Source: a virus (lineage: Duplodnaviria; Heunggongvirae; Uroviricota; Caudoviricetes). Taken from it: a DNA stretch of 64,000 nt. Within the stretch, counting starts at the first letter, position 1; each line of letters opens with the position of its first letter. This document shows positions 8,345 to 62,710 of the stretch, in pieces. The stretch is taken from positions 175,836 through 239,835 of the IMG/VR virus record IMGVR_UViG_3300033076_000838. One strand, given 5' to 3'. The notes beneath the pieces are model-generated. The model was not told the DNA's origin and made no database searches. It was given only the letters and a program-made list of their open reading frames with translations. A program made the position numbers and the translations under genes.

Positions 8345-8389
8345 TATAAATATATAAAAACTACTTTTTTTGATATTATAATATTTATA
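8345..8389. promoter_or_regulatory. Back-to-back putative late promoters (TATTTATA on minus at 8345-8352 and on plus at 8382-8389)
   Basis: Each copy lies 20-24 nt upstream of its divergent start codon (8325 and 8413). Confidence 0.7.
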
Positions 8390-8412
8390 AGCAATAAACA
8401 AAATATATAATT

Positions 8413-16388: not shown

Positions 16389-17147
16389 ATGGCAAAACAA
16401 AGAAAACCAAAAGATAAAATTTATTTTGGAACTCCTGCACAAGATGCAATAGTAGAATATAATAAATGTAAAGACCCAGTTAAAAGGTCAAAGATTTATG
16501 AAGAAAGAATTAAATATCCTTTTGAAAAATTAGCAGAAAATGTTTTAAACACATTCAAATTTTCATATTTTGATGTATCTAAAAAAGATATACAAATGGA
16601 AGTAGTTTCTACTATGGTAGAAAAAATGCATATGTTTAAAGAAGGTAAAGGTAGAGCATTCTCTTACTTTACAATTATAGCAAAGAATCATTTGATTTTA
16701 AAAAACAACGGAAACTATAAACGTTGGAAGCAAAATGCTCTTATATCTGAAATGCCAGAAAGTTGGAATCCTGAAAATGATTTCTATGAGGTTGAAGAAG
16801 GAACTGAATTTAGAGAATTTAAAGATATAATGTTAGCATATTGGGATAAACATCTTACTACCATCTTTAATAAGAAGAGAGATATTCAGATTGCAGATGC
16901 AGTATTAGAATTATTCCGTAGAAGTGATTATATAGAAAATTTTAACAAAAAACATTTATATCTACTTATTAGAGAAATGACTGATTGTAAGACTCATTAC
17001 ATCACAAAGGTAGTGAATATAATGAAACAACATCAGAAAAAAATGTTAAACGATTATTTAGAAGAAGGGGATTTTTCAGTAAGAGATGAACCTTTTTGGG
17101 TCTCACCGGATTTAATAAGTGGTGAGGAAGATTATGATGACGAATAA
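16389..17147 (+). CDS. Phage sigma factor, T4 gp55-like (late transcription)
   Basis: GKGRAFSYFTIIAKNHLI resembles the gp55/sigma region-2 'AFxYFTxIAxN' motif. Confidence 0.7.
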   Translation: MAKQRKPKDKIYFGTPAQDAIVEYNKCKDPVKRSKIYEERIKYPFEKLAENVLNTFKFSYFDVSKKDIQMEVVSTMVEKMHMFKEGKGRAFSYFTIIAKNHLILKNNGNYKRWKQNALISEMPESWNPENDFYEVEEGTEFREFKDIMLAYWDKHLTTIFNKKRDIQIADAVLELFRRSDYIENFNKKHLYLLIREMTDCKTHYITKVVNIMKQHQKKMLNDYLEEGDFSVRDEPFWVSPDLISGEEDYDDE

Positions 17148-46040: not shown

Positions 46041-49000
46041 ATGGCAATAATCAAATCATATTCACCACTACAAAATTTATCAAATTACGGAACGTTCATA
46101 ACGGATACAAATCCTAATTCAGATTACTTTCGTATAACTGAATTTAACGAAACGTTTACAGGTGGTAAAAATGGATTCTTAATAGAGGGTTCAGAGCATT
46201 TAAAGGAAACAACTGAAATTAAAATTGAAATTTTAGATGTTGATGGAAATCCTGTCTATTACGAACCAGGTAATGGAGTGCCTGAATATTATGAGGGTAT
46301 CTCTAAATTGGTTTCTGTCCACGTTTATGAGGACACACCTATTGGGATAGGTAAGATTACCATTTTGGGAGAATTGAAGACTTATGAGGATGCTAGCGGG
46401 GTTATTCGTGATATTCCAACCGAATGGAGAGGTGCATATAATGTTAAGTGGGAAAAATCATTCCAAATCAATAAAAACCTTACAAATGAAACTCGTGTAA
46501 GATTTTATAGAAGACCATCAATTTCCATAGATGAAATTACCAAACCAATATACAACGTAACAACTCCTTACATAACAAGAAGTGGTTCGGTAGAAGGTAT
46601 TTCTGAAATTCCTATTGCAGGAACTAATTTAAGTAGATGGACTGCAGGAACTCTTTATAAATTAAAAAGAGTGAGTGGTGATGGTTGGACTGCATCAATT
46701 GATGAAAATACAATTACGTTATCAGATTTAGGATATACGGCAACTGTCAAAGAGGTATTAAATACCGATGAAATTTTAGTTGATATTCCATATACAATCA
46801 ATAATATTGTAACAAATTTTACACAAAGTAGTTGGACATCTTCATTTGAATATTTAGATGGCCAAACTTTTACGGAATCTGCATTGACTGGTTCTTTTGC
46901 TAAAATAAACATTTCAAATCTTAAAACATTTGTGGGTGATGTAGCAAGGGTAAAGATATTCCGTAAATCTCGTAACGATGTTGGTGATTATGTTTTAGTA
47001 CAAGAATCAAAATTAGAATCTACTGAATTATTGAGAGATTTGGGTGCAAGTGGTACTACCGATATTTCGTATGGCAATTTTACACAAACAAATTTAGAAA
47101 CATATTGGACAGGTTCATCTAATTTGCATCCAACAATCAATTTGGATAAGTTATATGCATCGGTAAAACCTGCAGATGGGTATAGTGGAGTGCAAACTCT
47201 ATATACAACACAATCAGTTTCCGTTTCTAAGGATGTTGAATACACTCTTACGTTTAAAACTCTTTATAGTGGTTCGGTTGATAATACAAAATCGTTACGT
47301 GCATATTTGAGTTCATCAACTTACACTCAAGATTTTTTAACTCTATCGGGTTCTGCAATATATCAAACAAAACAAGATATAACTAAAAATATTATTGCAA
47401 ATCCAATAAGTGGGTCGGTAGATACTAAATTAGTATTTGAATTTAGTGGAAGTGGATGGCATGTATCAAATGTGAGTTTGAAAAACGCACAAGAAACATC
47501 ATTTTCACCTGATGAATTTACAATTGTACAAGATGTGTCAAAAAATGTATCAACTGAAACTTTTGATTTCCGTTTTGAATTTTACGATATAAACAACAAT
47601 TATATTCCGGTTGATGTATTTGCTACAAAACAATTTACTGGCGGTAATAATTTCCCAACTAGTGCAAAAATTCTTTTACTACAATCGGATAAATCGGCTT
47701 TCCGATTTACAACAGGTTCGGTAGCAAATCCACCCTTTCAACAAATTGGGTTTACAACTACTCGTCAAAACATTGCAGGTGGTATTACATATGGTCGTTC
47801 GGTATTTGATATAACGGGTAGTTATATTGAACCAACACACTATTCACAATCGAATGGTACAATTATGGATTATCCTGGTGCTTTACATTCATCAAACGAT
47901 GCTGGATTTATTGTGCAAATTGATGAATTTAGTGGTTCATTAGATGTGCCAGGAAGTACAAATCTTATTAGAGTTGGATTTATTACTTACACTGCATCGG
48001 GCGATGGACTGGAAGAATATGAAACCATTTATAGATTAGAAGATGGTGATAACGCACCTGGTCTATTTGCTTCTTCAACTGCTAATCAATTCATATATAA
48101 AGCAACGAATTTATCTTTAAATCCATCAACTCAAGTTATTACGTTTGATGTAAGAAGAAAAAATTTAGGAGTTAGTGGTACTACAATCACTGTCAATTCA
48201 GGTAGTCAATTTGGAACAGCATCAGCAATTACACTTTTATCCGATGACCCATCAACCGCAGTAGCAACTTATTATTTATCTGGTTCTACTTTTAACTATA
48301 CATCGGGTTCAGCAACTTATTTTTTCAGTGCATCTGATGGTTATGGTATTGATTATCATGACACAATTAAGATTACACCTATTAAAATATTAGATGGATT
48401 ATCAGTAACACTTACAAATGAAAATGCTACTTTACCTGCTAAATCAACTGGATTTGTGGAAAGTGGTTCATTCAGTTTGACAAGTGGTTCGGTAAGTGTA
48501 AAAGTTGGTAATGAAACAATTACATTTGATGATGAAGGAGATGGACAAGGAAATAACACATTTGCTATAACATCAGTAAGTGGTAGTACCGGTATATCCG
48601 TAAATTCATCAAACCCAACTACAAATGAATATGGAATCACTACACTTAATGGTGTAGATAGTGGTTCTATAAATGTAGTGGTTAGATACAAAGATGGTAG
48701 TGGAGATACAACTGACGTAACAAAGATTGTAACTTATACAAAAGCAAAAAGAGCAACTCCGGTAGTTATTTCATTATTATCAAATGATGCACAATCAGTA
48801 ACCAAATCAAAAACAGGTGTATATGGAACTCCATCAAATTTTACAATTTCAGTAAATGAAGGTGGTTCGAACTATTCATATTCAAATAGTGGAGCAATAA
48901 ATACGTTTTATGTTTCAGCAATAACAGGTGCACCCACACCAACCAATGCAACAATAACACCAACTACACCATCTGCAGATACTGGTACGACAGTAAATTT

Positions 49001-51284
49001 AACCATTGCTTATGTAAATTCAGAAGGTATATCCGGTACGATTTCAAAAACTCATAGAGTAAGTGTTACAATAGATGGTAGTGATGGTACAAACGGAACA
49101 AATGGTACTGATGGTAATGATGGTGCACCGGGAGCAGATGGACCGGGTGTAGTATTCAGAGGGCCGTGGAGTTCTACTACAACTTATTATGATACTGATG
49201 ATTATCCGACTCGTAGAGATGCAGTTCTATACAACGGAACTTATTACGCAACAAAAACAAATGCAACTACAAACTTAAATAAACAACCAGATACTCAAAC
49301 TGCTTTTTGGGAATCATTAGGTACTGATTCGTATTTTGTAGCAGCTGAAATTGCAATATTTAGAGAATCATATGTAAAAGAAACTATAAACGTTGGTACA
49401 AATAGTAGTGGTAATGCAAATATTACTATTGCAGGTGGTACAACATCACCATATATTTCAATCGGTCAATCAACAAAAGGATATAATCAAACTGGTGCAT
49501 GGATTGGTAGTGATGGTACAAATGGTAAATTATCGTTAAAAAGTGCATCAAATTCTCTTTTATGGGATGGTACAAATTTAACTATAACAGGTGGTGGTAC
49601 ATTTAGTGGAGCGTTATCTGCAGCAAGTGGAACATTTACCGGTGCCTTAAGTGGTGGTACAATTTCTATCGGTAGTGGTAATAGTATTTTTAAAGCAGAT
49701 TCAGACGGAATTTATTTAGGAAACGCAACATTTGCTTCTGCACCATTTAGAGTAACTCCTGCAGGTGTTTTAACTACAACATCAGGAACTATTGGTGGAT
49801 GGACAATTGGGTCATCTACTTTGACAGGAGGTGCAGCAACATTAAATAGTAGTGGAGCGATTTCAATCGGTAGTGGTAATAATATTTTCAAAGCAGATAG
49901 TAATGGTATATATGTAGGTAACGCTACATTTGCAGATGCACCATTTAGAGTATCACAAGCAGGTGCAGTAACTGCTACAAATTTAACTTTGACCGGTGGT
50001 AGTTTAACTATTGGTAGTGGTGGAACGTATGCAAATATAAATTCCGCTGGTAAATTAACTGCAGCGAATGTTGATGTTTCTGGTCGTATTACTGCTACCG
50101 AAGGATTTATTGGAGATTGGGTATTAACTGGTCCTAACTTATATGCATCGGTAGGTACGAAAAAATTACAATTAGCAGCAGGAAGACCTGCTATGGAATT
50201 ATATGATGGAGCATCAGTAGTAGTGGATGTCAATGCAAATACTGCTTTATCAGATAGGTCTGCGGGTTCGATAACACCATCACCCGGCACACTCAATTCT
50301 TACAACGAACCTGTATATTATGCATTCTACGATAATCATTCGGGTCCAACATATTCTTATACAAATACTCCTGATAATTTAGGGCCGAATCAATCTACCT
50401 TTACAATTTCAAGTGGAAATGCATTAATAGGTCAGACCTGTACAATTTCAGCTACGGTCTCAGGTGGTTCAAATTCATTTATTGCATCCGGTGATGATTC
50501 ACATGGTAAATATTTAGAATATATGGAATGGAGATTTTCATATGGATTTAAATTAGTAACACCATCCCAAACTATCTATGTAACAACTCCAACTTTATAT
50601 GGTGAGGTATTACATCAAATCGGTGATTATACAATGAATGCATCATATGGTACATTTACTTTGAGTACATCGGTTACATTAGAAGCAGGAACATATTATA
50701 TAACACCCGTATTAAATAATGTTTATGCAGCTGCAATATTATCTGCACCAAATTTACCTGGTCCTTCAACGTTCCAAGTATATATGAGAACACCACTATT
50801 AAGTTCAATAAGTGCAGCAGTACCTGTATCAAAAACTGAATTATGTGCAGGTGGTTTCCAAGTTGTATATGATACATCAAAATATTTAGAGGTAAAACGT
50901 GCTAATGAAACGGATTTTGTAAAAATTGGTGGTGGATTGACGGTTACAGGCGATGTTACTGCAAATACATCTTCGGATATAAAATTAAAAGAAAACTTAG
51001 TAAAAATTAAAAATCCGCTTGAAAAAGTATCTTTAATAAATGGATATACTTATGATTGGAAAGAGGGTTTTGAAGATATTCATACTAACAAAGGAAATGA
51101 TATTGGAGTTATAGCACAAGAAATAGAATTAGTATTACCACAATTAGTAGCAACTCGTGATAATGGATTTAAGGCCGTGAGATATGATAAAATTGTTGCA
51201 CTATTAATCGAAGGTATAAAAGAATTGGTAAATAAAACCGAAGAGTTGGAAACTGAAATAAAAAAATTAAAAGAAGATAAATAA
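46041..51284 (+). CDS. Tail fibre protein with C-terminal intramolecular chaperone (peptidase S74)
   Basis: Short GXY collagen run, duplicated 'SIGSGNxIFKADS...APFRV' unit, C-terminal SSDIKLKEN...GYTYDWK...GVIAQEIE...VRYDKIVALLIEGIKEL. Confidence 0.9.
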   Translation: MAIIKSYSPLQNLSNYGTFITDTNPNSDYFRITEFNETFTGGKNGFLIEGSEHLKETTEIKIEILDVDGNPVYYEPGNGVPEYYEGISKLVSVHVYEDTPIGIGKITILGELKTYEDASGVIRDIPTEWRGAYNVKWEKSFQINKNLTNETRVRFYRRPSISIDEITKPIYNVTTPYITRSGSVEGISEIPIAGTNLSRWTAGTLYKLKRVSGDGWTASIDENTITLSDLGYTATVKEVLNTDEILVDIPYTINNIVTNFTQSSWTSSFEYLDGQTFTESALTGSFAKINISNLKTFVGDVARVKIFRKSRNDVGDYVLVQESKLESTELLRDLGASGTTDISYGNFTQTNLETYWTGSSNLHPTINLDKLYASVKPADGYSGVQTLYTTQSVSVSKDVEYTLTFKTLYSGSVDNTKSLRAYLSSSTYTQDFLTLSGSAIYQTKQDITKNIIANPISGSVDTKLVFEFSGSGWHVSNVSLKNAQETSFSPDEFTIVQDVSKNVSTETFDFRFEFYDINNNYIPVDVFATKQFTGGNNFPTSAKILLLQSDKSAFRFTTGSVANPPFQQIGFTTTRQNIAGGITYGRSVFDITGSYIEPTHYSQSNGTIMDYPGALHSSNDAGFIVQIDEFSGSLDVPGSTNLIRVGFITYTASGDGLEEYETIYRLEDGDNAPGLFASSTANQFIYKATNLSLNPSTQVITFDVRRKNLGVSGTTITVNSGSQFGTASAITLLSDDPSTAVATYYLSGSTFNYTSGSATYFFSASDGYGIDYHDTIKITPIKILDGLSVTLTNENATLPAKSTGFVESGSFSLTSGSVSVKVGNETITFDDEGDGQGNNTFAITSVSGSTGISVNSSNPTTNEYGITTLNGVDSGSINVVVRYKDGSGDTTDVTKIVTYTKAKRATPVVISLLSNDAQSVTKSKTGVYGTPSNFTISVNEGGSNYSYSNSGAINTFYVSAITGAPTPTNATITPTTPSADTGTTVNLTIAYVNSEGISGTISKTHRVSVTIDGSDGTNGTNGTDGNDGAPGADGPGVVFRGPWSSTTTYYDTDDYPTRRDAVLYNGTYYATKTNATTNLNKQPDTQTAFWESLGTDSYFVAAEIAIFRESYVKETINVGTNSSGNANITIAGGTTSPYISIGQSTKGYNQTGAWIGSDGTNGKLSLKSASNSLLWDGTNLTITGGGTFSGALSAASGTFTGALSGGTISIGSGNSIFKADSDGIYLGNATFASAPFRVTPAGVLTTTSGTIGGWTIGSSTLTGGAATLNSSGAISIGSGNNIFKADSNGIYVGNATFADAPFRVSQAGAVTATNLTLTGGSLTIGSGGTYANINSAGKLTAANVDVSGRITATEGFIGDWVLTGPNLYASVGTKKLQLAAGRPAMELYDGASVVVDVNANTALSDRSAGSITPSPGTLNSYNEPVYYAFYDNHSGPTYSYTNTPDNLGPNQSTFTISSGNALIGQTCTISATVSGGSNSFIASGDDSHGKYLEYMEWRFSYGFKLVTPSQTIYVTTPTLYGEVLHQIGDYTMNASYGTFTLSTSVTLEAGTYYITPVLNNVYAAAILSAPNLPGPSTFQVYMRTPLLSSISAAVPVSKTELCAGGFQVVYDTSKYLEVKRANETDFVKIGGGLTVTGDVTANTSSDIKLKENLVKIKNPLEKVSLINGYTYDWKEGFEDIHTNKGNDIGVIAQEIELVLPQLVATRDNGFKAVRYDKIVALLIEGIKELVNKTEELETEIKKLKEDK

Positions 51285-52552
51285 TGCCTTTACCTAATAG
51301 TGGTCCTATAAAAATGTCCGATATTAAAGCTGCATTAAGCACTGCTTCAAATTCATTAAGACAATATAATGTTATTGCTAAAGCAGCAACAGGTCTTAGT
51401 AAGTTTGATATACCAGATGTTATGTCTGAATTTTATGGATATAGTAGTACTCCAACTCCGACAGTTCCAACACCTACTCCAATAGTACCAACACCAACAC
51501 CGGAAGTACCTTCACCAACCCCAAATTATACTCCACCAACACCAACACCTACTACACCGGAAACTGGATTAAGTGTTTATTTAGGAACGGATTCAGAGGT
51601 AACATGTGGTGGTGGTGATTATGATTATGTAGATATTACTGTCTATGGAACTACCATTTGTGATGCAACGTCAATAAAAACATTACCACAATATGTGTTA
51701 AACGATTTACCATCAAGTGCATATTTTTATGTTTCTGACATAGTTGGTGGTACACGATATTATAGAAGATTTAGAGTTTATGGTAGTGGTGCAACTACAG
51801 CCGGAACTTGTACTGAATGTGCAGTAACCCCAACACCTACACCAAGTGTTCCAACTCCAACACCAATAGTACCAACACCGGATTATTATGCACCTACGCC
51901 GGATTATACCCCACCAACACCAACCTATGTTCCACCAACACCTACATTATCAATTGATTCGGGTTGTGTAAGTTATGAAGGAACTGGTTATATAAATTTA
52001 TCAGCATCGGGTGGTTCGGGTAATTATAAATACCATATTGGTCCATCGGTTATCGATTTCAACAATCCTTCTGCATATAACGGAGTTCAGAATGCTTCTA
52101 ATTTAGCAGATAATGCAGGATATTATGTTGCGGTTTATGATTTAACTTATGGAACTAAAAGTGCAACAACTCGTGGTATAGATTGTCTTCCTGCTCCAAC
52201 TCCAAGTGTTCCTACACCTACACCAGAAGTACCAACACCTACACCAGAAGTACCAACACCTACACCAAGTGTTCCAACACCTACACCGGCTATTACTGGT
52301 TGGAATTATTCAATAGGTATTGGTACAGGTGACCCAGGTAGTAGTGGAACTGCATGTGTAAACGCCCAATATGGTTCATATTATGGAACTGTCTATTCAA
52401 ATCAATGGTCTGAATTAATTGGTGGTAGAATTTATTATAATTACGATGGTTCGCCATTTAATGATAGTGGTATATTCTCTGATGGATTATCATATGGATA
52501 TTTTAGTGCAGGTGGACAATATCAAGCAGGTGGAGTTTGTGAAATATTATAA
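51284..52552 (+). CDS. Pro-Thr-repeat (mucin/extensin-like) tail-fibre-associated protein
   Basis: Three PTPT-rich blocks separate Cys-bounded globular domains. N-terminus MPLPNSGPIKMSDI...MSEFYG is a type often found after phage fibres. Confidence 0.75.
   Translation: MPLPNSGPIKMSDIKAALSTASNSLRQYNVIAKAATGLSKFDIPDVMSEFYGYSSTPTPTVPTPTPIVPTPTPEVPSPTPNYTPPTPTPTTPETGLSVYLGTDSEVTCGGGDYDYVDITVYGTTICDATSIKTLPQYVLNDLPSSAYFYVSDIVGGTRYYRRFRVYGSGATTAGTCTECAVTPTPTPSVPTPTPIVPTPDYYAPTPDYTPPTPTYVPPTPTLSIDSGCVSYEGTGYINLSASGGSGNYKYHIGPSVIDFNNPSAYNGVQNASNLADNAGYYVAVYDLTYGTKSATTRGIDCLPAPTPSVPTPTPEVPTPTPEVPTPTPSVPTPTPAITGWNYSIGIGTGDPGSSGTACVNAQYGSYYGTVYSNQWSELIGGRIYYNYDGSPFNDSGIFSDGLSYGYFSAGGQYQAGGVCEIL
52195..52290 (+). 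repeat. Coding 21-nt tandem repeat (PTPTPEV / PTPTPSV)
   Basis: CCAACACCTACACCAGAAGTA-like units; related blocks near 51449-51560 and 51827-51944. Confidence 0.85.
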
Positions 52553-52558: not shown

Positions 52559-54013
52559 ATGAAAAGATTAGTTACATTTGGTGATAGTTGGACTGCAGGA
52601 CATGGTGTAGAAACTGATATACAATATAAAGAAATTATTTCTCCAAATTTGTTTATTGATTATTTACGTTTGATGAACGGATGGCCAAGATTTTTAGCTA
52701 ATAAATTCGATATTCCATTTGTTAATTTAGCATTTTGCAATAAATCAAATAATGAGATTTATGAAGATATTGTAAAGTGGAAACCACTATTAGATAAAGA
52801 TGATTTAATAATTGTGATGCTCTCATATCCATATAGAAAATATGGTAATCCAATTATAGATGTTGGTAATATTATTAATGAATTAAATGGATATAACTAT
52901 TTTATTATTAATTCATTTTTTCCAACATTTTCAAATGTAGAACCTTCTGATATTTCTGATTTAAATCTTAGTAGATTTTTAAATATAGATGGGTGTGTTA
53001 GTGATGGGTTAGTTAAATGGGAATATGAAAATAAACAAAGTTGTTGGGAATATGGATTTAGAAAAGTTAATAATTCTGATACATTTTTAGGTGGTGATTA
53101 TCACCCAAATACAATTGGATATAAATTAATAGCAGATGAAATATATCTTAGATTAAAAAATTATAATTCATATAAATTATTAACTATACCTATTGCAGCA
53201 CCTACGGAATTATTTAGATTTCAAACATCATTATTTGAATTTTTTCAAAAAAGAGTTTATGGTGATGATGCTAATATGAACGCAATTATTATTATGTTAG
53301 ATAGAAATCAACATAATAGTTCACATAAATCTCTCCCGTGGACTATCGATTTAAGAAATAAATTATTACCAGGAATACATAAAGAGTTAGACCAATCTAA
53401 AAAACATCCACATTATAATTCTATAAATGTGTTTTATCCATTAAAATATATGGTAGATACATTACCAGATGAAAAAGTTTTATGTATTATAGATTGTGAT
53501 GTAGTACCTTTAAAGGTATATGATGGTATAATCCCAAATGATGATGAGGTTATTACATGTGATATTTACGAAAATTGGCATATGCATATTAAAAATCCAT
53601 CACAAGAAAATTTTTATAAAATAGAACCATTTTTAGAACATACTGATTATGAATATATGGATGGTGGTTTTGTTCCGATTATTATAAATGTAAAAACTCT
53701 TAAAAAAATATTAAATGATGTAATTAGTATTTCTGAAAGATTAATCGATAGTTTAGATGATGATGATATGTTTGGTTGGTGGGGTACAATGGCCGGATTT
53801 CAAATTGCATGTCATAATCATAAAATAAAATGTATTTCACAAGATAATACATATGTTCCAAATATAAATGATTTATCTGATAATCATTATTTTTGTCATT
53901 ATTCATGTGACCCATTGTTTGCAAAAAAAGATTATCCAAATTGGGATATAACTCAATTCAAATCTAACAAATTTTATAATCATATTAGAATGTGGTTGAA
54001 AAATTTTAAATAA
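52559..54013 (+). CDS. SGNH domain fused to a GT-A glycosyltransferase resembling plant HPAT/SGT1 (GT95/GT96)
   Basis: TFGDSW...HPNTIGY, followed by FRFQT...YNSIN...IIDCD...GWWGTMAGF...CHYS. Confidence 0.6.
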   Translation: MKRLVTFGDSWTAGHGVETDIQYKEIISPNLFIDYLRLMNGWPRFLANKFDIPFVNLAFCNKSNNEIYEDIVKWKPLLDKDDLIIVMLSYPYRKYGNPIIDVGNIINELNGYNYFIINSFFPTFSNVEPSDISDLNLSRFLNIDGCVSDGLVKWEYENKQSCWEYGFRKVNNSDTFLGGDYHPNTIGYKLIADEIYLRLKNYNSYKLLTIPIAAPTELFRFQTSLFEFFQKRVYGDDANMNAIIIMLDRNQHNSSHKSLPWTIDLRNKLLPGIHKELDQSKKHPHYNSINVFYPLKYMVDTLPDEKVLCIIDCDVVPLKVYDGIIPNDDEVITCDIYENWHMHIKNPSQENFYKIEPFLEHTDYEYMDGGFVPIIINVKTLKKILNDVISISERLIDSLDDDDMFGWWGTMAGFQIACHNHKIKCISQDNTYVPNINDLSDNHYFCHYSCDPLFAKKDYPNWDITQFKSNKFYNHIRMWLKNFK

Positions 54014-54050: not shown

Positions 54051-54605
54051 ATGGTCACAATTATAGATAATGTTTTAACTAAAGATGAATGTAAAATATT
54101 AATAGAACTTGGTTCTAAAAATATGATTAAAGCCGGAACTTTGGGTAAACAAATTGATGGATATAGAACCGCCGATGGTAGTTGGTTATTAGAACCAAAC
54201 GAATTAGTTGATAAGGTAAAAAATATGATTTCCGTAATGACAGGAAATCCAATAGAAAACCAAGAAGAAATTCACATAGTTAAATATGATATTGGTGGTG
54301 AATTTAAAGTTCATACTGATTATTTTCATAGTAATGAAGAATATTATTCAGAACATATAAAACGAGGTGGACAACGAATAATGAGTTGTTTGTTTTATTT
54401 GAATGATGATTTCGAAGGCGGTGAAACTGAATTTCCATTAAAAAAATTAAAAATAACGCCAAGACTTGGTAGATTATTAATGTGGAGTAATGTTACACCA
54501 GATGATGCTTTAGATTATGAAAGTTTACATGCAGGATTACCCGTTATAAGTGGAACTAAATATATAGCAGTTATATGGATTAGAGAATCTAAATTTAAAA
54601 AATAA
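54051..54605 (+). CDS. Prolyl 4-hydroxylase-like 2OG-Fe(II) oxygenase
   Basis: HIVKYDIGGEFKVHTDYF, GGQRIMSCLFYLND, GGETEFP, SLHAGLPVISGTKY...WIR: the plant/algal P4H pattern. Confidence 0.85.
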   Translation: MVTIIDNVLTKDECKILIELGSKNMIKAGTLGKQIDGYRTADGSWLLEPNELVDKVKNMISVMTGNPIENQEEIHIVKYDIGGEFKVHTDYFHSNEEYYSEHIKRGGQRIMSCLFYLNDDFEGGETEFPLKKLKITPRLGRLLMWSNVTPDDALDYESLHAGLPVISGTKYIAVIWIRESKFKK

Positions 54606-54609: not shown

Positions 54610-55113
54610 ATGCATTGTGATTTAGGTAAAATATTAAATGAATATGAATGTGAATATATAAAAAAAGAATTTTTACATTTTATGGAAATTGGTAAAATCA
54701 ATTTAGAAAATGATAATAATTTTTACAAAAATTCATATGGGGGTAATACTCCAGTTACTTGGTATTTATTGGGTAGATTTTTACCATTAGTAGAAGAAAA
54801 AAGTGGAAAAAAATTAAAAACAGCCAATCCATATATTAGAATTTATAAAAATGGGTCTACTCTACCAAATCATATAGATAGACCTGGATTAGATTGGACT
54901 ATATCAGTTTGTATATTTACAAATTTAGATAATGATTGGCCATTATATGTAGAAGATATTACCCATAAGGATGGTAAAGTTCCATATGTTACACAACAAG
55001 GATATGCTGGATTAGTTGATGGTAGAATTACAAATCATTGGCGTGATGAATTAATTTGTAATGATTCTGAATATGTAATTCAATTATTTTTACATTATAC
55101 TGAAATAGAATGA
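54610..55113 (+). CDS. 2OG-Fe(II) oxygenase
   Basis: YIRIYKNGSTLPNHIDRP (HxD), HWRDEL, QLFLHY. Confidence 0.8.
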   Translation: MHCDLGKILNEYECEYIKKEFLHFMEIGKINLENDNNFYKNSYGGNTPVTWYLLGRFLPLVEEKSGKKLKTANPYIRIYKNGSTLPNHIDRPGLDWTISVCIFTNLDNDWPLYVEDITHKDGKVPYVTQQGYAGLVDGRITNHWRDELICNDSEYVIQLFLHYTEIE

Positions 55114-56147
55114 GTTATAAATTATTAGTTACAACCGGAGCAGGAAATACCATACAAGGTGGTTCTGATATTTGGACTAATTATTTTTTAGAATTAGTAT
55201 GGTCTACTTTACCTACAAAAAAAGAATGGAGGTTATTAATAGATTCTAAACGACCAATAACATTTGAAGAAAAATCATTACCGAAGGGATTACAATACCA
55301 CTTTCATTATGATGATGTTGAAAAAACAAATAAATGGTTAGAAGAAAGTGAAATAATTCATGTCCTACATCCACATTATCACAAACGTCCACATCTTTGG
55401 CATTGGGAAGATAAATTTGGAACTGTCTTTGTTCATGCATATGCAAGAGAAATGACGGAAGTGATTGATAATAATCCAGAAATAAATCGATTACAATTCG
55501 GAACAAACGTAGATGTTGAATTTTATGATGAATATCTTGCAACATTCAAACGAAGAATATGGGTAGGTAATAATCCAACTCAAATGATTGATGAATTTCC
55601 AAATTACACTTACAACGTTCCAAATTTTTATGAATTTAAAAATAATTTACCACTTACAACTCATATAGATAATGGTAAAATAGGATTTGCTTCTCGTGCT
55701 GAATCTCGTAAGTGTTTGCATTGGATGAATAATCATACAGGGTTTGTATTGACAAATCAATTTGATGTGAAAAATTTAAGAGATACTACAACATATTCTC
55801 TAAATGGTATTGATTTATTCCAGTGGGACCCATCTATACATCATTTTTTTATGTTAAAAAATTGGGGTATATTTCATGGTGCATATTTTAAAGAACCATT
55901 TGGATATTCAATATTTCAAGCAGTTGATTATGGTAAATTACCAATAATAAATAAAGATTGGGCATCAGAAGTTGATTACAAATATAGAGTTTCAACTAAA
56001 AATGAATTTGATGAATGTGTGAAAGAAATACTAAATGATTCGTATGAAGAAAGAGAACAAAATTGGTTAAATCTCAAAAATTATATGAAAAAATTTGATA
56101 ATAAAGACGAATGGGTTGATAAAATCCGTACCGCAATTTTAGCATAA
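55110..56147 (+). CDS. GT-B glycosyltransferase (GT4-like)
   Basis: KEPFGYSIFQAVDYGKLPII resembles the EPFG...EA..G.P motif. Confidence 0.7.
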   Translation: MSYKLLVTTGAGNTIQGGSDIWTNYFLELVWSTLPTKKEWRLLIDSKRPITFEEKSLPKGLQYHFHYDDVEKTNKWLEESEIIHVLHPHYHKRPHLWHWEDKFGTVFVHAYAREMTEVIDNNPEINRLQFGTNVDVEFYDEYLATFKRRIWVGNNPTQMIDEFPNYTYNVPNFYEFKNNLPLTTHIDNGKIGFASRAESRKCLHWMNNHTGFVLTNQFDVKNLRDTTTYSLNGIDLFQWDPSIHHFFMLKNWGIFHGAYFKEPFGYSIFQAVDYGKLPIINKDWASEVDYKYRVSTKNEFDECVKEILNDSYEEREQNWLNLKNYMKKFDNKDEWVDKIRTAILA

Positions 56148-56196
56148 TTCCAAATATTTATTTTTCAGATTTTTTTACGTTTTGTATATTTTTATA

Positions 56197-56329
56197 TATT
56201 TATATACAAAGGGGGTAGGGGGTTAGCTACAAAGCTAATAACTACTACACTATAACTTATACTATTTTATTAATACTATATTTTATATAAAGCTTAATAA
56301 AGCCTATCTCCGTAATCTCGGAAATATAT
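56197..56329 (+). other. Non-coding element: late-promoter motif, G5-TA-G5, small hairpin, AT-rich tract
   Basis: TATTTATA at 56197, GGGGGTAGGGGG at 56211-56222, TTAGC/GCTAA hairpin, ACTAT-like repeats. Confidence 0.45.
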
Positions 56330-56335
56330 TTGGTT

Positions 56336-57106
56336 ATGACATCATTACAAGATTTAGAATATCTAAAAAACAATCTTACAAACAATCAGGAATTTAACGA
56401 ATCACATGAAGTGGAGGATAAACCAGTTCCATATCGTTGGTCACATGGTGCTACTGATTTACACTTAGGAGATGGTTTAATTGTTTACTCAATTATTCAA
56501 TATATGCGAGCAAAAGTTTGTGTATGTTTGGGTAGTGGTGGTGGATTCATACCTCGTATAATGACTCAAGCTAGATACGATTTACATCAACAAAAAATAT
56601 TTGAAGGTGATAATAATTTAAGTTGGGGTGATATTGGAGTTACATACGTTGTTGATGCAATGAACGGAATTGGTGGAAATGTTGATTGGTTTAGAGAAGA
56701 ATCATTTTTCAGAAGAACATTTCACCCACGTATCATCAGTAATACTACCGAAAACGCATTTCATAATTTTTTTGTGTTAAACGATATTCAAATTGATTAT
56801 TTACATATCGATGCAGGACATTCATATGAAAATGTAAAGGAAGATTTTGATTTATACACTCAATTATTATCACCAAATGGTATTGTATCAATTCACGATA
56901 CTGACCCAAATTATGCAGATAGTTATATCGTTACAAATGAAGTGAAAGATAGAGGTGATTTTGATGATTGGCACGGACCGATTACTTTTGCAAAAGAATT
57001 AAAAAATAATTCAGAGTGGGAAACATTTGACCTATTTAATTTTGGAATTCAAAAAAATAAACCAGCATCCACAGGAATAACATTAGTTAGAAGATGTCAA
57101 AAATAA
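56336..57106 (+). CDS. Class I SAM-dependent methyltransferase (Methyltransf_24-like)
   Basis: VCLGSGGG, LHIDAGHSYE, LSPNGIVSIHD. ATG at 56336 (the track starts at TTG 56330). Confidence 0.85.
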   Translation: MTSLQDLEYLKNNLTNNQEFNESHEVEDKPVPYRWSHGATDLHLGDGLIVYSIIQYMRAKVCVCLGSGGGFIPRIMTQARYDLHQQKIFEGDNNLSWGDIGVTYVVDAMNGIGGNVDWFREESFFRRTFHPRIISNTTENAFHNFFVLNDIQIDYLHIDAGHSYENVKEDFDLYTQLLSPNGIVSIHDTDPNYADSYIVTNEVKDRGDFDDWHGPITFAKELKNNSEWETFDLFNFGIQKNKPASTGITLVRRCQK

Positions 57107-57942
57107 ATTTAGTTACTGTCGTTGGCCATAACACAACTATGTTAGGACATATGATTCAACATTATAAAAATATAGTTGATGAAATTCATGTGGTTGTTTA
57201 TAGACAAAACGTAAATGATGGTATATTGGATGAAGTTAAAAAATTAGGCATAATACCAATCAAAGTAGTTACTGAACCAAAATTTAATTGGGAACGGGTA
57301 ACTGAATTATATAATGAAATTAAACAAACCAAACCAAACGAATGGTGGGTAGTTTCAGACGATGATGAATTCCACATTTATCCAAAACCAATTAAAGAAC
57401 TGATTTCAGAATGCGAAGAAAATGGTTGGGATTTTATAACAGGTGGATTCATAGATAGGATAGGAGAAAATGGAGAATTTCCAATCGTTGAGAAAGACTC
57501 TAATATTTGGGAAAAGTTTCCACTTGCTGGATTTTTTAGGCATCCGATGAGTGGGGCTTGTCCTAATAAAGTTTGTGTAATGAAAGGATATGTTGATGTA
57601 ACCCCTGGTCAACATTATGCTAAAATTGGTGATAGTGATACTTGGAGAGAAAGGGGTTGGAATCACCCAAAACGATACCCATATGGTAATGGTGAAGGAT
57701 TTATACAAGTTCATCATTTTAAATGGGATTCGACCGTTTTAGAAAGATTAAAAGAAGTTTCTGAAACAAAAGAAGATTATACATTTTGGAAAGAATATAA
57801 AAAAATGTATAGAGGCATACAAATAAATGATTGGAAAATTGATATTAATAATCCTACATTTATGATAGAAAAAATGACAGATAATACTCATTCTGATTAT
57901 TCAAAATGGGATAAACTAACAAGAATTATACTTCATATATGA
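57094..57942 (+). CDS. GT-A glycosyltransferase (GT2-like)
   Basis: HMIQHY...; WWVVSDDDEF (DxD); HHFKW. Confidence 0.75.
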   Translation: MSKINLVTVVGHNTTMLGHMIQHYKNIVDEIHVVVYRQNVNDGILDEVKKLGIIPIKVVTEPKFNWERVTELYNEIKQTKPNEWWVVSDDDEFHIYPKPIKELISECEENGWDFITGGFIDRIGENGEFPIVEKDSNIWEKFPLAGFFRHPMSGACPNKVCVMKGYVDVTPGQHYAKIGDSDTWRERGWNHPKRYPYGNGEGFIQVHHFKWDSTVLERLKEVSETKEDYTFWKEYKKMYRGIQINDWKIDINNPTFMIEKMTDNTHSDYSKWDKLTRIILHI

Positions 57943-59414
57943 AAGATAAATTAGCATTAATAGTTCCATATCGCGATAGACAAGACCACTTAAATGTGTT
58001 TATACCACATATGACTAAATTCCTCCAAAACAAAGGAATTGATTATACTATTTTTGTAGCAGAACAAGCAGATGAAAGACCATTTAATTATGGTAAGTTG
58101 TGTAATGCGGTTATAAATGAAATATCCGATGAATACACTTATTTTTGTTTTCACGATGTTGATATGTTGCCATTAACGGATGATTGTGATTATGGATATC
58201 CAGAAACACCAATTCATTTAGCAACAAATGTAGAGGCACATAATAATGAATTACCATATCCACAATATTTTGGTGGGGTTATATTGATTAATAGAGAAGA
58301 TTTTGAAAACTCAAACGGATATTCAAATGAATATTGGGGGTATGGGTTTGAAGATTTAGATTTATTACGAAGATTAGAAAAATCAGGTGCATATTTAGAA
58401 AAATACTATGATTTAAATCAAACATATTCTTATTATGATAAGGATGATACTTTACCATATAGAATAGAAAATGTAAATATTTCAAATAGTAATAAAACAC
58501 ATATATTAAAAGCAATAAATTTACCAAAAGGTAATAGAATTTATGGAATACAAAATCCTATAATGAAAACCTTTACTAATTCATCATTTACAATTTCATT
58601 ATGGTTTAAAGACGATTCCGATAACACCGATAAAAAGAATTTATTTTCATTTGAAGGGTGCGATACCGGATTATTTTTATCGGCAGATGGAAATTCAAAC
58701 ACTTATGTGATTGGTCAAATTTGGAATAAAAATCAAGAACACTTTGAAGTATCCGTTGAATATTATAAAAATCGTTGGAATAATGTAGTGTTTGAATACA
58801 ATAAAGAACAAAATTTAATTAGAATTGTTCTAAATAATAAAAAAATTGTAGAAAGAAAATTATACAATTTTGAAATGTTTGATTATAGTGATAAATGTAT
58901 TAAAATATCAGATTTAGAAACTGACATTAAGTTAGCAAATATAATAACCTTTAATAATATTATTTCAGATTTACATATTAAAAAATTGTATTACGAAGGA
59001 AACGAATATTTGGAAATTTTATCATCAATTGATGGATGTACTCCAACTAATATTTTTACATTTGATTCATTATATAATGGTAGATTTATATTAGATAAAG
59101 GTAAAAATTCTAATCATATTAAGTTAGAAGGAACATATTCACCCTATACCGAAATGATAACATTATCAGATGTAGTTTATTTACCAACTAGAATTGAAGG
59201 ATTATATAAATCATTAGTTCATAAAGAAGATACACATATTATAAACAAATATTATAATTTTGACCCAGATATTGAGGAAAATGCTGATATATTCTTTAAT
59301 GAAGTTTTACGTGATAAAATAGATTTTACTAAATTAGGATTATCTAATGTAAAATATACTTTATTAAATAATGAAGAAAAAGAAAACTATGTTTTAATAA
59401 AAATAGTAACTTAA
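57939..59414 (+). CDS. GT7-like galactosyltransferase with inserted LamG-like domain
   Basis: IVPYRDR, FNYGKLCN, FHDVD, YFGGV, GYSNEYWGYGFEDLD; LamG-like insert; GLSNVKY end. Confidence 0.8.
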   Translation: MKDKLALIVPYRDRQDHLNVFIPHMTKFLQNKGIDYTIFVAEQADERPFNYGKLCNAVINEISDEYTYFCFHDVDMLPLTDDCDYGYPETPIHLATNVEAHNNELPYPQYFGGVILINREDFENSNGYSNEYWGYGFEDLDLLRRLEKSGAYLEKYYDLNQTYSYYDKDDTLPYRIENVNISNSNKTHILKAINLPKGNRIYGIQNPIMKTFTNSSFTISLWFKDDSDNTDKKNLFSFEGCDTGLFLSADGNSNTYVIGQIWNKNQEHFEVSVEYYKNRWNNVVFEYNKEQNLIRIVLNNKKIVERKLYNFEMFDYSDKCIKISDLETDIKLANIITFNNIISDLHIKKLYYEGNEYLEILSSIDGCTPTNIFTFDSLYNGRFILDKGKNSNHIKLEGTYSPYTEMITLSDVVYLPTRIEGLYKSLVHKEDTHIINKYYNFDPDIEENADIFFNEVLRDKIDFTKLGLSNVKYTLLNNEEKENYVLIKIVT

Positions 59415-59418
59415 AAAT

Positions 59419-59643
59419 ATGATAAATACTATAATTAAAAATGAAAAGGCTGTAAAAACGTTAGAACGATTAGCAGATGAATTAGAAAATTTAAAAACAA
59501 AAGAAACCGATTTATCATTCGTTCCGGCAATGATTTTTCTGATATTAGAAAGATTCAGAACATCTAATACTCCGTTTCCTATAACATTTTTCACCAAACA
59601 ACCAAATAAAAAAAATAAAAAAAATGGCAAAACAATTAAATGA
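59419..59643 (+). CDS. Small hypothetical protein
   Basis: ORF track; shares VKxLERxADxLE with the next gene. Confidence 0.45.
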   Translation: MINTIIKNEKAVKTLERLADELENLKTKETDLSFVPAMIFLILERFRTSNTPFPITFFTKQPNKKNKKNGKTIK

Positions 59644-59863
59644 TTCTTCGATAGAAGAAAGAGGTGTTAAGGCATTAGAAAGAATAGCCGATACATTAGA
59701 AGACATGAACGATTGGGTTTATGCATTAGAAACCGATGCCTGGTCTGAAAGATTAGAGTGGTATTTGAATGAATTTTATATGATTGCAAAAGCTAAAACA
59801 ATTGGTTCAGTAAATAGACCAGTAAGAGATGCCGAAAGACAAGAAACCGATAGTGAAAAGTAA
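59624..59863 (+). CDS. Small hypothetical protein
   Basis: ORF track; A-rich start context. Confidence 0.65.
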   Translation: MAKQLNDSSIEERGVKALERIADTLEDMNDWVYALETDAWSERLEWYLNEFYMIAKAKTIGSVNRPVRDAERQETDSEK

Positions 59864-61271
59864 GCATAAATTAGGAGTTATTGTTCCATATCGTAATAGA
59901 GAAACCCAACTTAGTAGGTTTTTAAAACATATGGATAAATATCTAACTAATTATGATTATCAAATCTTCATAGTAGAACAAAACGGAAGTGCTCCGTTTA
60001 ATCGTGGTAAACTATTAAATATAGGTTATAAAATTGCGTGCGATTATAATTGTGATTATTTTGTATTTCATGATGTTGATATGTTACCAGAAAAAGTAGA
60101 TTATTCATATACGGATAAACCACTACATTTGGCTACTCATTTACAAGAAAATGATTATGAAACATCATTTTTTGATTATTTTGGTGGTGTTACTCTTTTT
60201 AACAAAGAAGATTTTGCTAAAATAAATGGGTATTCTAATGAATATGTTGGATGGGGGTTTGAAGATGATGATTTATTAATTCGTTGTATTCAATCAGATT
60301 TAGAAATTGATTTTGAAAATTCTAATGATGATGATATTAAAGAAATTGAAACATTTAAATTTGATGGAGATTTTTCATATATTGAATTACAAAAAATAAA
60401 AAACGCATCTTTTTTATCTGATGATTTTTCCATTTCAGTAATGGTTAAACCATCCGATGTTCAAATTAACCCAAACAAACAATATGATGAATATCCAATA
60501 GTTTCTATACCAGGTTATAACATAGGAATATTTTATAATTCATTTCGTAGATTCTTTTGTCAAATTTTTGATAAAAATAAAAATCCATATTCAATAACAA
60601 CTGATATTTTGGGTGAGCGTTGGGTTCATTTAACTATGGTGTTTAAAAACAACACCGAAGTTTATTTTTATTTAGATGGTCAATTAATAGATACTATAAA
60701 AATGAATGAAGAAATATTAGAATTATCTACTGATAAAATATACATAGGTTCTGCTAGTGGTAAAAAGGATAATAAAGATTTCTTCTATGGTAATATTGCA
60801 AATGTAGAAATGTATGATATTGGATTAGAGGCTAATGAAGTTTTAGAAATATACAAAAATAGTTTAAAACCTAAAATTAGAAATTTTGGAAATTTTAAAT
60901 CATCCGAATACCTATATTTCCAACTACTACCAGAATTATCAAATGATACAACCTGTGTAGAATTAGCAAATGAATATAAACCAAAATTAAATAATGTTAA
61001 ATTAGAAAAATTAAAACAATCATTTAATACTTTTTTACCTAAACCATATAGAAGAGATGGTAAGTTTAAATCATTAAAACATCAATCTAATTCATCAGTA
61101 GGAAATCGTTGGGTTCAAACTGAAACTAGAAAAAATCAATTAAGATATTATAACGAAGTTAGAACAAATATTATAGATTATCATATTGATGGGTTGAATA
61201 CATTACGTTATACGGAATCTGAAAAAATAGTAATATCACCAAACACATTACATATAAAAGTAAATTTATAA
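59829..61271 (+). CDS. GT7-like galactosyltransferase with inserted LamG-like domain
   Basis: IVPYRNR, FNRGKLLN, FHDVD, GWGFEDDD; LamG-like FYGNIANVEMY; DGLNTLRY. Confidence 0.85.
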   Translation: MPKDKKPIVKSKHKLGVIVPYRNRETQLSRFLKHMDKYLTNYDYQIFIVEQNGSAPFNRGKLLNIGYKIACDYNCDYFVFHDVDMLPEKVDYSYTDKPLHLATHLQENDYETSFFDYFGGVTLFNKEDFAKINGYSNEYVGWGFEDDDLLIRCIQSDLEIDFENSNDDDIKEIETFKFDGDFSYIELQKIKNASFLSDDFSISVMVKPSDVQINPNKQYDEYPIVSIPGYNIGIFYNSFRRFFCQIFDKNKNPYSITTDILGERWVHLTMVFKNNTEVYFYLDGQLIDTIKMNEEILELSTDKIYIGSASGKKDNKDFFYGNIANVEMYDIGLEANEVLEIYKNSLKPKIRNFGNFKSSEYLYFQLLPELSNDTTCVELANEYKPKLNNVKLEKLKQSFNTFLPKPYRRDGKFKSLKHQSNSSVGNRWVQTETRKNQLRYYNEVRTNIIDYHIDGLNTLRYTESEKIVISPNTLHIKVNL

Positions 61272-62710
61272 TGAAATTAGGAGTTTGTGTTCCATATAGA
61301 AATAGAGAAGAACATTTAAAACAATTTATACCGGCGGTTAGTAAATATTTAACCGAACAAGGTATAGATTTTTGTATTTATTTTGGTCATCAAACTGATG
61401 ATAAATTATTTAATAGAGGTGCAATGAAAAATATTGCAGCTAAACACGCATTTGAGGATGGGTGTGATTATATAGTTTGGCATGATATTGATATGATACC
61501 AGAAGAAGGATGTGATTATTCTTTTCCAACAGAAACTCCAATTCATATTGCAACTAATATCTCACAAATGGATTATAAATTAAAGTATGAAGAATACTTT
61601 GGTGGTGCTGTAATTTTTTCAAAAGAACAAGTCGAAAAAACCAACGGATATTCTAATGATTATTGGGATTGGGGTATGGAAGATGATGACCTATTTTGGA
61701 GGTGTGTATTGGAGGGGTATGTAGATGATTCTTATATGAAATTTCCAAATGAACCAAAAAATTTTTTATCATTTAATGGTAAGGATTCATACGTTCACAT
61801 ACCGGCCACTCGTAGTTTACGAAATTTAACATCACGTTCTCACACAATTTCGGTTTTAGTTCGTGCACATCAACAAGAAGAAAAAGTTCCAATTTGGTTA
61901 GTTGGTGATGAACAACGGAGATTTTGTGAATATCCAATATTAAGAAGACCGGGGTATGATTATGGACTTAGTTATAATAATAGTAGAGCATATACTGCAC
62001 AATTATGGAATAACCAACGAGAACATCTATATCAGTGGATGAAACGATATGAAAATCGTTGGACAATCGTAACGTTAGTTGTTGATGAAAATAATATTCA
62101 TTTTTATATGAATGGTAAAGAATCGGATGCAAGGCATGGAACTGGTACTCATTCTCCACAATATTTTGAAGGAATGTTGAAACGTTATGGTATGGTTGAT
62201 TATTATTTAGGAACAACTACATCAGTTGGAAAAGATGATGTAAATAAATGGTTCAAAGGAGATATTGCAGAAGTTAAAATGTGGGATAGAGCTTTATCAA
62301 AAAATGAAGTAGAAAATATTGCAAATACTACTTCAACCGATGGTTTAATTTTACACTATGATTTCAAAGATGGTGGTGTTGATGATAAAAGTGGTAATGG
62401 TAATGATGGTATTGCATATAATTGTGAAAATAAATTAGAACCGATTCAAATTCCATATACTATTATTCCACATAGAAGACCGGGAAGATTACGTTGTTTA
62501 CCTCATAAAGATGAAGGTTTGGTAAAAATAGGTGGTGTTGATAAATGGGCAAAGGGTGAAACTACTGCAAGAAACGAAAGAAGATATGTTTTACAAATGC
62601 AACAAGGAAAATGGGATTATAAATCAGATGGAATTACACAATTAAAATATGAATTAGTTTCAATTGATGAAATAACTCCTAAAGCAAAATTGATAAATGT
62701 AAAACTTTAA
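61271..62710 (+). CDS. GT7-like galactosyltransferase with inserted LamG-like domain
   Basis: VPYRNR, FNRGAMKN, WHDID, WGMEDDD; LamG-like FKGDIAEVKMWDRAL; DGITQLKY. Confidence 0.85.
   Translation: MKLGVCVPYRNREEHLKQFIPAVSKYLTEQGIDFCIYFGHQTDDKLFNRGAMKNIAAKHAFEDGCDYIVWHDIDMIPEEGCDYSFPTETPIHIATNISQMDYKLKYEEYFGGAVIFSKEQVEKTNGYSNDYWDWGMEDDDLFWRCVLEGYVDDSYMKFPNEPKNFLSFNGKDSYVHIPATRSLRNLTSRSHTISVLVRAHQQEEKVPIWLVGDEQRRFCEYPILRRPGYDYGLSYNNSRAYTAQLWNNQREHLYQWMKRYENRWTIVTLVVDENNIHFYMNGKESDARHGTGTHSPQYFEGMLKRYGMVDYYLGTTTSVGKDDVNKWFKGDIAEVKMWDRALSKNEVENIANTTSTDGLILHYDFKDGGVDDKSGNGNDGIAYNCENKLEPIQIPYTIIPHRRPGRLRCLPHKDEGLVKIGGVDKWAKGETTARNERRYVLQMQQGKWDYKSDGITQLKYELVSIDEITPKAKLINVKL

Follow-up and report, generated by a model that had tools for sequence, protein, structure and literature searches.

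O-glycosylation of hydroxyproline (Hyp) is seen as characteristic of the cell-wall proteins of plants and algae and of the protist Skp1 pathway. In plants, the hydroxyproline O-arabinosyltransferases (HPATs), glycosyltransferases (GTs) of family GT95, transfer L-arabinofuranose to peptidyl Hyp. HPATs have been described as related to GT8 (PMC4908140), and GT95 as related to GT96 (PMC8012813), the family of SGT1, the activity of which requires Hyp in the substrate (PMC4908140). Viral prolyl 4-hydroxylase (P4H) genes are treated as auxiliary genes, and their use "remains cryptic" (PMC9301287). We analysed a 64,000-nt stretch of a tailed-phage genome (Caudoviricetes; IMG/VR record IMGVR_UViG_3300033076_000838, positions 175,836 to 239,835), hereafter called the window, with a focus on the gene at 52559..54013 (+). 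According to its open reading frame (ORF) and its homologues, this gene encodes a soluble 484-aa fusion of an SGNH domain and an HPAT-like GT. With this protein the HPAT superfamily gains a new viral variant, one that is fused to SGNH and encoded, next to Pro-rich tail proteins, within a conserved module of P4H and GT genes; the assignment to the family is confirmed. Full-text literature searches returned no paper that links HPAT or the corresponding Pfam family PF23452 to phages.

Assignment of the C-terminal domain to the HPAT family

Pfam, profile comparisons and the predicted fold confirm the C-terminal domain (aa 205-484; 53171..54013, +) as a GT-A glycosyltransferase that belongs to the HPAT superfamily (PF23452; GT95/GT96-like). 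An earlier note, made from the letters of this stretch alone, had let the domain start at 53171, which corresponds to aa 205, and stand-alone homologues of 276 aa indeed begin at aa ~207. The six motifs that the note had likened to Arabidopsis SGT1 are all found in 52559..54013 (+) in the order given, namely FRFQT (aa 219), YNSIN (286), IIDCD (310), DGGFVPIII (368), GWWGTMAGF (406) and CHYS (446). In protein and six-frame genome searches PF23452 scored 26.2-27.8 bits at a curated cut-off of 23.9, and it was the sole GT family above the Pfam cut-off for the C-terminal domain. Among 19 aligned homologues, 18 match Pfam HPAT (best 5e-13), while no Pfam match to GT8 or another GT family was obtained for any of the 19; by sequence profile the domain is not a member of GT8. 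A profile of the phage domain, searched against 1.84 billion representative proteins, retrieved no more than 89 clusters (E<=1e-3), among them an HPAT of Brassica cretica (E 6.5e-12), a protein that is named HPAT-like in UniRef and matches Pfam HPAT at 4e-164.

The plant set used for direct comparison consisted of 15 aligned HPAT3/RDN2/NOD3/PLENTY orthologues, GT95 HPATs only. The phage alignment matched it in hhalign with 93% probability (E 3.4e-7, 192 columns), and five of the six motifs were paired with plant counterparts: the invariant Asn of the phage family (aa 290) with the Asn of L-N-R-P, D-C-D with the E-P-D-H that is invariant in the plant enzymes, GGFVP with GNSPV, WW..M with GWVLEMY, and HYSxD with HYTYGCD. 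The N-terminal F-x-x-Q block lies outside this local alignment and is covered by the Pfam alignments of other members. With GT95 HPATs as the reference, the resemblance is thus far above chance by Pfam, profile and hhalign alike. The putative metal and nucleotide-sugar motif DxD (Asp312 and Asp314; 53486..53500, +) is invariant in the 19 homologues, as are the blocks YENWH, GGFVP, WW..M and HYSxD (53567..53911, +). The domain is probably a retaining enzyme.

An AlphaFold model of the domain, built on the 19-sequence alignment, reached a predicted local distance difference test (pLDDT) score of 93.7 and a predicted template modelling (pTM) score of 0.91. Compared with the ESM-Atlas, the model superimposed on two Chlorophyta clusters with a TM score of 0.80 over 262-264 residues, and PF23452 is carried by 98-100% of the members of both clusters. 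Against solved structures the TM score was only 0.46-0.55 (GT6, GT8 LgtC, GT24 UGGT), phmmer and profile searches of the PDB with the GT domain gave nothing meaningful, and no solved GT95/96 structure turned up in any of the PDB searches made. The earlier note had named best matches to GT8 or other GT-A families, with no HPAT affinity, as the outcome that would speak against it; the combined Pfam, profile, hhalign and fold evidence points to HPAT instead. Taken together, the fold and sequence results fit the description of HPATs as related to GT8 but forming a family of their own (PMC4908140). Pseudomonadota clusters of the ESM Atlas that join PqqD, a recognition element for ribosomally synthesized and post-translationally modified peptides, to PF23452 HPAT were also similar to the model (TM 0.80), which hints at peptide-natural-product glycosylation by the same fold.

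Linkage to prolyl 4-hydroxylases

The gene downstream of the fusion (54051..54605, +) encodes a 184-aa prolyl 4-hydroxylase (PF13640, 6e-16). In phmmer searches of the PDB it matched the P4H of B. anthracis (4.5e-29), of Chlamydomonas (1e-23) and of PBCV-1 (1e-12), and judged by these matches it is a true prolyl 4-hydroxylase homologue. It is followed by a gene for a second oxygenase-like protein of 167 aa (54610..55113, +; phrog_2954, 3e-21), a putative P4H partner: the phrog_2954 module is fused to the C-terminus of a P4H module in a 385-aa protein of locus L008, and jackhmmer groups the phrog_2954-type protein with the 2-oxoglutarate (2OG) oxygenase set. The oxygenases that adjoin HPAT-like genes are typically 380-440 aa long with both modules joined; in the window they are separate genes.

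The pairing was followed across a sample of 80 fetched IMG/VR loci and the loci from earlier searches, together 86 loci, which form 28 clusters at >=70% identity. A 2OG oxygenase is present in the fetched locus in 20 of the 28 clusters, and in 15 it is either fused to the HPAT-like gene or located within 2 kb of it. Counted on cluster representatives, the density of 2OG genes amounts to 2.45 per 10 kb at a distance of <=1 kb from the HPAT-like gene and to 0.33 beyond, corresponding to a 7.3-fold enrichment (conditional binomial p 4e-6). In two distant loci the adjoining oxygenases are clear P4H homologues (7e-31 and 1e-40). Direct fusions of the HPAT-like domain were found with 2OG-FeII_Oxy_3 (P0025, L060/L061), with Cupin_8/JmjC (Pseudohongiellaceae and other Gammaproteobacteria) and with PF11397, the Skp1-hydroxyproline GlcNAc-transferase family (phages and Planctomycetaceae). 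The recurrence of such pairings with protein hydroxylases is the strongest argument that the HPAT-like branch would act on hydroxylated peptides, as plant HPAT and SGT1 do.

Several side observations concern the same gene neighbourhoods. Proteins of 649-679 aa from gammaproteobacterial metagenome-assembled genomes (MAGs) carry the HPAT-like domain at their N-terminus (L100-L103 and L105, at about 5900-7950; L003, 8001-9995). Both of those scanned with Pfam (P0026 in L003; L101) end in a Cupin_8/JmjC hydroxylase, and the contigs are of chromosomal size; with this domain content the protein would be a bacterial "hydroxylate and glycosylate" enzyme. In L035, the P4H fusion gene and the HPAT-like gene are separated by a gene (8286-9314, +) for a short-chain dehydrogenase/reductase (SDR) of the nucleoside diphosphate (NDP)-sugar epimerase/dehydratase type, which may provide the sugar donor. 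Two neighbours of the stand-alone HPAT-like gene in L001, of 183 and 223 aa, were considered as P4H or SGNH candidates and proved to be neither, the 223-aa protein being RuvC-like.

Pro-rich proteins as candidate acceptors

The gene directly behind the tail fibre gene and 7 nt upstream of the fusion (51284..52552, +) encodes a 422-aa protein, which we consider a candidate acceptor on the grounds of its composition, its position and a weak phrog virion-protein match. It consists of 13.5% Pro and 13.7% Thr with 33 PT/TP dipeptides, and has three Pro-Thr-rich linkers (51437-51574, 51815-51958 and 52175-52303, +) in which Pro and Thr alternate, with Val, Glu and Ser in addition. The position of the gene is conserved in relatives. 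In 5 of the 28 clusters the HPAT-like gene directly adjoins a gene for a Pro-repeat protein, at a background of 3.2% of ORFs of >=150 aa. Those Pro-repeat neighbours that can be named are virion tail proteins, and two of them have crAss muzzle C-terminal domains. An example is the T4-like tail fibre of L001 (1068 aa; 12909-16115, -), in which a collagen G-X-Y run at the N-terminus is combined with a tail-collar-like region and a long (PT)n stretch; it is encoded three genes from the stand-alone HPAT-like gene, which itself lies beside gp32/UvsY. A further Pro-repeat neighbour is a protein of at least 746 aa in L008 (10833-13073, -) with small Cys-containing modules and many (TPAP/TPAV)n linkers, adjoining a gene set of SGNH, HPAT-like, PF11397 GT and P4H-phrog_2954. 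No membrane segment was found in any protein of the window's module, so the chemistry would take place in the host cytoplasm before assembly.

The SGNH domain and the gene fusion

The N-terminal part of the fusion protein (aa 1-204; 52559..53170, +) is an SGNH/GDSL-type domain, as indicated by weak Pfam matches, by homologues and by a family profile. The matches to Lipase_GDSL_2 (7e-4; 20.5 bits, cut-off 32.9) and Lipase_GDSL (0.02; 15.5 bits, cut-off 23.6) fall short of significance by Pfam's own limits, and the profile of the SGNH family matches the GDSL protein 4rw0 of the PDB at 3e-4. Stand-alone homologues of ~206 aa form more than 275 clusters with 45-58% identity, many of them with precomputed GDSL matches, and the nearest clusters listed in an ESM-Atlas feature search with the SGNH domain are all viral. 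The fusion protein begins straight with block I, G-D-S-W (52580..52591, +), where G8, D9, W11 and the putative nucleophile Ser10 are invariant in 24 homologues. In block V (53093..53110, +), which holds His182 with Asp180 at His-2, H182, P183 and N184 are invariant and D180 nearly so. Two further residues, N56 and N64, are invariant among the 24 homologues and may substitute for the oxyanion residues of blocks II and III. The label SGNH that the earlier note had given to this partner therefore holds, with its invariant Ser and His and the match to 4rw0, although more weakly than the HPAT assignment, and the domain is probably an active, divergent Ser/His SGNH enzyme as far as conserved residues can tell. 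The stand-alone homologues are located in phage NDP-sugar/GT clusters next to DUF5672, a setting that supports a carbohydrate-related role and is consistent with the suggestion of the earlier note that the SGNH partner could add or remove O-acyl groups on the sugar. DUF5672 proteins stand behind the stand-alone SGNH gene in the phage NDP-sugar clusters of L006 (7626-8354) and L007 (7618-8349); considered as divergent HPAT-like domains, they proved to be unrelated (hhalign probability 0.1%). Equally unrelated to SGNH is the ~220-aa product of the gene before the HPAT-like gene in L020/L035, which also has no PHROG.

The fusion of the two domains is real, and split gene pairs in other phages represent its unfused form. 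Fused homologues occur only in a handful of close relatives (71-85% identity), among them four clusters at 74-85%. L008/L009 and L016-L019 have two stand-alone genes instead, first SGNH and then HPAT-like with an overlap of ~30 nt, and a PF11397-type GT gene comes next. The SGNH protein of L008 shares 56% identity with the N-terminal domain of the window's protein, and in a quick tree the window's HPAT-like domain is sister to the L001/L016 pair, L016 having the split arrangement. With overlapping split pairs in these loci and L016 as a sister in the tree, the fusion is a recent merger of adjacent genes that had previously functioned together. The full-length AF2 model of the fusion gave a pLDDT of 93.3 and a pTM of 0.71. 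Foldseek searches with this model produced GT matches only, the SGNH fold having no independent match to solved structures. The fusion protein has no transmembrane-like segment (maximum KD19 = 1.56) and belongs to no PHROGs family, and tblastn against 50,697 GenBank phage records gave zero matches, that is, the family is absent from that collection.

Distribution and evolution

The earlier note had called these families mainly plant and algal. This has to be qualified: viruses and bacteria have a branch of their own, which comprises 89 clusters (50% identity) and 87 IMG/VR loci, and the PF23452 model of Pfam already labels many of its members. A pattern scan of 185,579 GTDB species representatives confirmed only 13 loci (MAGs of Pyrinomonadaceae, Gammaproteobacteria and Planctomycetaceae), compared with 87 confirmed in IMG/VR. 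The HPAT-like clade of the window is mostly viral. In a quick maximum-likelihood tree, unrooted and midpoint-rooted for drawing only, the 43 sequences from viruses and bacteria group in a single clade (SH-aLRT 99) with the bacterial sequences nested among the viral ones, and the window's domain falls into an all-viral subclade (SH-aLRT 99). The plant HPATs share a long, separate branch with divergent sequences from metagenomes. The note had suggested a phylogeny as a check on the direction of transfer; this quick, unrooted tree shows no sign of a recent capture from plant or alga by phage, and since it is unrooted a direction cannot be assigned.

Genomic setting

The source record is the 287,455-bp genome of a jumbo phage, which CheckV rates as complete. 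The window has a GC content of ~30% and contains baseplate-wedge, endolysin, tail-fibre and numerous sugar-related genes. The helicase of the phage has its closest counterparts in Cellulophaga phages and crAss-like phages, and a host of Bacteroidota type is therefore suggested. The genes run in the order S74 tail fibre, 422-aa PT-rich protein, SGNH-HPAT, P4H, phrog_2954 protein and 345-aa protein, followed by Methyltransf_24, a GT2-like gene, three GT7-LamG genes and radical SAM, and this order is kept in relatives at 74-82% identity. The tail fibre (1747 aa; 46041..51284, +) ends in an S74 intramolecular chaperone (Peptidase_S74, 3e-13), and synteny of the S74 tail fibre region is retained in L010-L012. 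The co-directional genes downstream of the oxygenases (55110..62710, +; Pfam), from the gene for the 345-aa protein, a possible GT-B, over Methyltransf_24 and GT2-like to the three GT7-LamG genes, are candidates for glycan extension. The same downstream order was found behind the HPAT-like gene in L016 and L010-L012.

The 345-aa protein (55110..56147, +) has no Pfam or PHROG family. In a comparison of language-model features the cluster of T4 AGT (PF11440) ranked 29 among its 30 nearest (0.97), which is a lead only; the gene accompanies the HPAT-like cassette in L016 and L010-L012. The three GT7 genes (57939..62710, +) are paralogues of the beta-1,4-GalT-like type, each with a Laminin_G_3 domain behind the GT7 N and C regions, and are conserved in relatives. 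Elsewhere in the window a second SGNH-like gene (2302..3117, -; GDSL + DUF6071) adjoins a 2OG-FeII_Oxy_3 gene (1736..2302, -), so that the pairing of SGNH and oxygenase is recurrent in this phage. Another 2OG-FeII_Oxy_3 gene (7756..8433, -) has a tryptophan-halogenase-like gene (6509..7759) as its neighbour. A Nol-like carbamoyltransferase (17119..18849, +; phrog_1601, 4e-117) could be a further glycan-decorating function of the phage.

Proposed pathway and alternative explanations

The explanation that we favour, and that we hold with moderate confidence, is that Pro-rich linkers of the virion are first hydroxylated and then O-glycosylated, with the SGNH domain editing an acyl group. Under this scheme the adjacent P4H and its phrog_2954 partner would hydroxylate prolines in the Pro-Thr/Pro-Ala linker repeats of tail-associated virion proteins, the first candidate target being the 422-aa PT-rich protein encoded just upstream. 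The HPAT-like domain, using Asp312/Asp314 and a nucleotide sugar, would then add the first sugar to hydroxyproline or to an adjacent Thr/Ser. Extension or decoration of the glycan may fall to the products of the GT2-like, GT7-LamG and methyltransferase genes further downstream, and the SGNH domain (Ser10/His182) would probably remove or transfer an O-acyl group on the sugar or its donor. Our observations comprise the identities of the domains, their conserved residues and fold, the linkage of the genes and the fusions between domains; from these we infer which residue (Hyp or Thr) and which protein accept the sugar, which donor is used and what the SGNH domain does. In a wider form, several tailed-phage lineages and a few bacteria would perform an extensin-like cytoplasmic Pro hydroxylation and O-glycosylation of tail-fibre or muzzle linkers, and HPAT would be an old family extending across prokaryotes and viruses. 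We put this forward tentatively, with doubt slightly outweighing belief.

A number of points weigh against the favoured explanation. The identity to plant HPATs is only ~20%, and the first 60 residues are uncovered in the hhalign match. For the phage branch a peptidyl acceptor is a prediction from genomic linkage with P4H and Pro-repeat genes. With regard to the hydroxylase, 8 of the 28 clusters contain no 2OG oxygenase in the fetched locus, and PF13640 was unmatched in three of four whole records searched (records 30-68% complete), so the phage P4H is not obligatory. At least two further PF13640 genes exist within the window, and the single adjacency there is therefore less telling than the cross-locus statistics, the 28 clusters of which are not phylogenetically independent. 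The association with Pro-repeat proteins is modest (p about 0.03, relatedness not corrected). As to the SGNH domain, block III G-x-N-D is absent and replaced by S-Y-P-Y-R in the family, the Gly of block II is Ala in the window, and the Asp of block V stands at His-2 instead of His-3 in the 24 homologues; for these reasons its activity is not assured. The pTM of 0.71 leaves the relative position of the two domains uncertain.

A first alternative retains the modules and moves the sugar: the enzyme would act like SGT1 and glycosylate Thr or Ser of the PT repeats and not Hyp, with the P4H providing the Hyp context or acting independently. Pro and Thr do alternate in the linkers, plant SGT1 (GT96) adds Gal to Ser and requires Hyp (PMC4908140), GT96 is described as GT95-related (PMC8012813), and a P4H was not seen in some phage records with the HPAT-like gene. 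We nevertheless consider this variant rather unlikely, as the tight P4H linkage and the fusions to P4H and JmjC domains fit a hydroxylated acceptor residue slightly better, and the sequence comparison covered GT95 HPATs only. The module could also serve host takeover, modifying a host protein or envelope component in place of a virion protein, in line with the usual listing of viral P4H genes as auxiliary metabolic genes (PMC9301287), with the bacterial JmjC/Cupin_8-fused homologues in ordinary chromosomal contexts and with the many loci in which a Pro-repeat gene is not nearby. The location of the gene inside the tail-fibre block, directly behind the PT-rich protein, in this phage and its relatives, as well as the tail-protein domains on Pro-repeat neighbours in other phages, make such a host target improbable.

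The two remaining alternatives dispense with a peptide acceptor. A generic GT8-like enzyme of sugar-chain synthesis would prime a glycan or polysaccharide independently of hydroxylation and resemble HPAT through shared ancestry only. The best solved structural matches are indeed GT8, GT6 and GT24 enzymes with sugar substrates, and many further GT genes follow downstream, but Pfam GT8 is unmatched, and the 7.3-fold enrichment of P4H-type oxygenases beside the gene and the direct fusions to protein hydroxylases leave this quite improbable. Finally, 2OG oxygenases, several GTs and a methyltransferase in one cluster could stand for DNA hypermodification, in which the oxygenases hydroxylate a base and the other enzymes decorate the phage DNA; the proximity of the 345-aa neighbour to the T4 DNA alpha-glucosyltransferase cluster in language-model features (0.97) is a lead only. 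We give this very little credence: the oxygenase is closely related to peptidyl prolyl 4-hydroxylases (4.5e-29), the PDB search yielded peptidyl-prolyl hydroxylases only and no nucleic-acid oxygenase, HPAT-family enzymes are peptide glycosyltransferases, and the Pro-repeat neighbours would be left unexplained.

If hydroxylation and O-glycosylation of virion linkers holds true, long-cryptic viral prolyl 4-hydroxylases would be explained and a concrete role would be provided for these abundant genes. Hydroxyproline O-glycosylation would be extended to bacteriophage virions, and glycosylation of hydroxylated protein residues by HPAT (GT95/96) would not be a plant invention. A glycan coat on tail linkers would have consequences for how phages resist proteases, recognize their hosts and are recognized by the immune system. 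The phage branch moreover offers small, soluble HPAT-family enzymes that are predicted to fold well (pLDDT >93).

Comparison with known systems

In the cytoplasmic Skp1 pathway of Dictyostelium and Toxoplasma, P4H1 is followed by Gnt1 (PF11397) and then by further GTs including AgtA. The window contains no PF11397 gene, the target of that pathway is a single Hyp in Skp1 and not a repeat, and its first GT is not of the HPAT family. Among giant viruses, the hydroxylase-glycosyltransferase of Mimivirus and the prolyl 4-hydroxylase of PBCV-1 are examples of virus-encoded modification of repetitive structural proteins. Both are eukaryotic viruses, and Mimivirus modifies lysine; no HPAT-family GT is known to be involved in the collagen or proline modification of giant viruses. 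The glycosylation of mycobacteriophage virions differs in its GT families, and a hydroxylase step and a Pro-repeat acceptor are not known there, but there, as proposed here, GTs that the phage encodes next to its structural genes act on virion proteins within the cytoplasm of the host.

Closer likenesses are found among the plant enzymes. SGT1 (GT96), compared by description, is a large membrane protein of the ER/Golgi; it is described as GT95-related (PMC8012813), and its substrates are Ser-Pro-rich peptides that contain Hyp (PMC4908140), a point of relevance for the PT repeats. From the plant HPAT1-3/RDN/NOD3/PLENTY enzymes (GT95) the phage protein is set apart by an identity of ~20%, by D-C-D in place of E-P-D-H, by its fusion to SGNH and by its position in a separate viral and bacterial clade. 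It is also soluble and lacks the type II membrane anchor and the Golgi setting; anchor and secretory location are features of the plant setting, not of catalysis. Both share the PF23452 family with a predicted, GT8-related GT-A fold, and their acidic x-D metal motif, G-x-x-P-V/I-I, G-W-x-x-x-M and H-Y-x-x-x-D blocks align. Both, moreover, stand downstream of a prolyl 4-hydroxylase, as proposed here for the phage.

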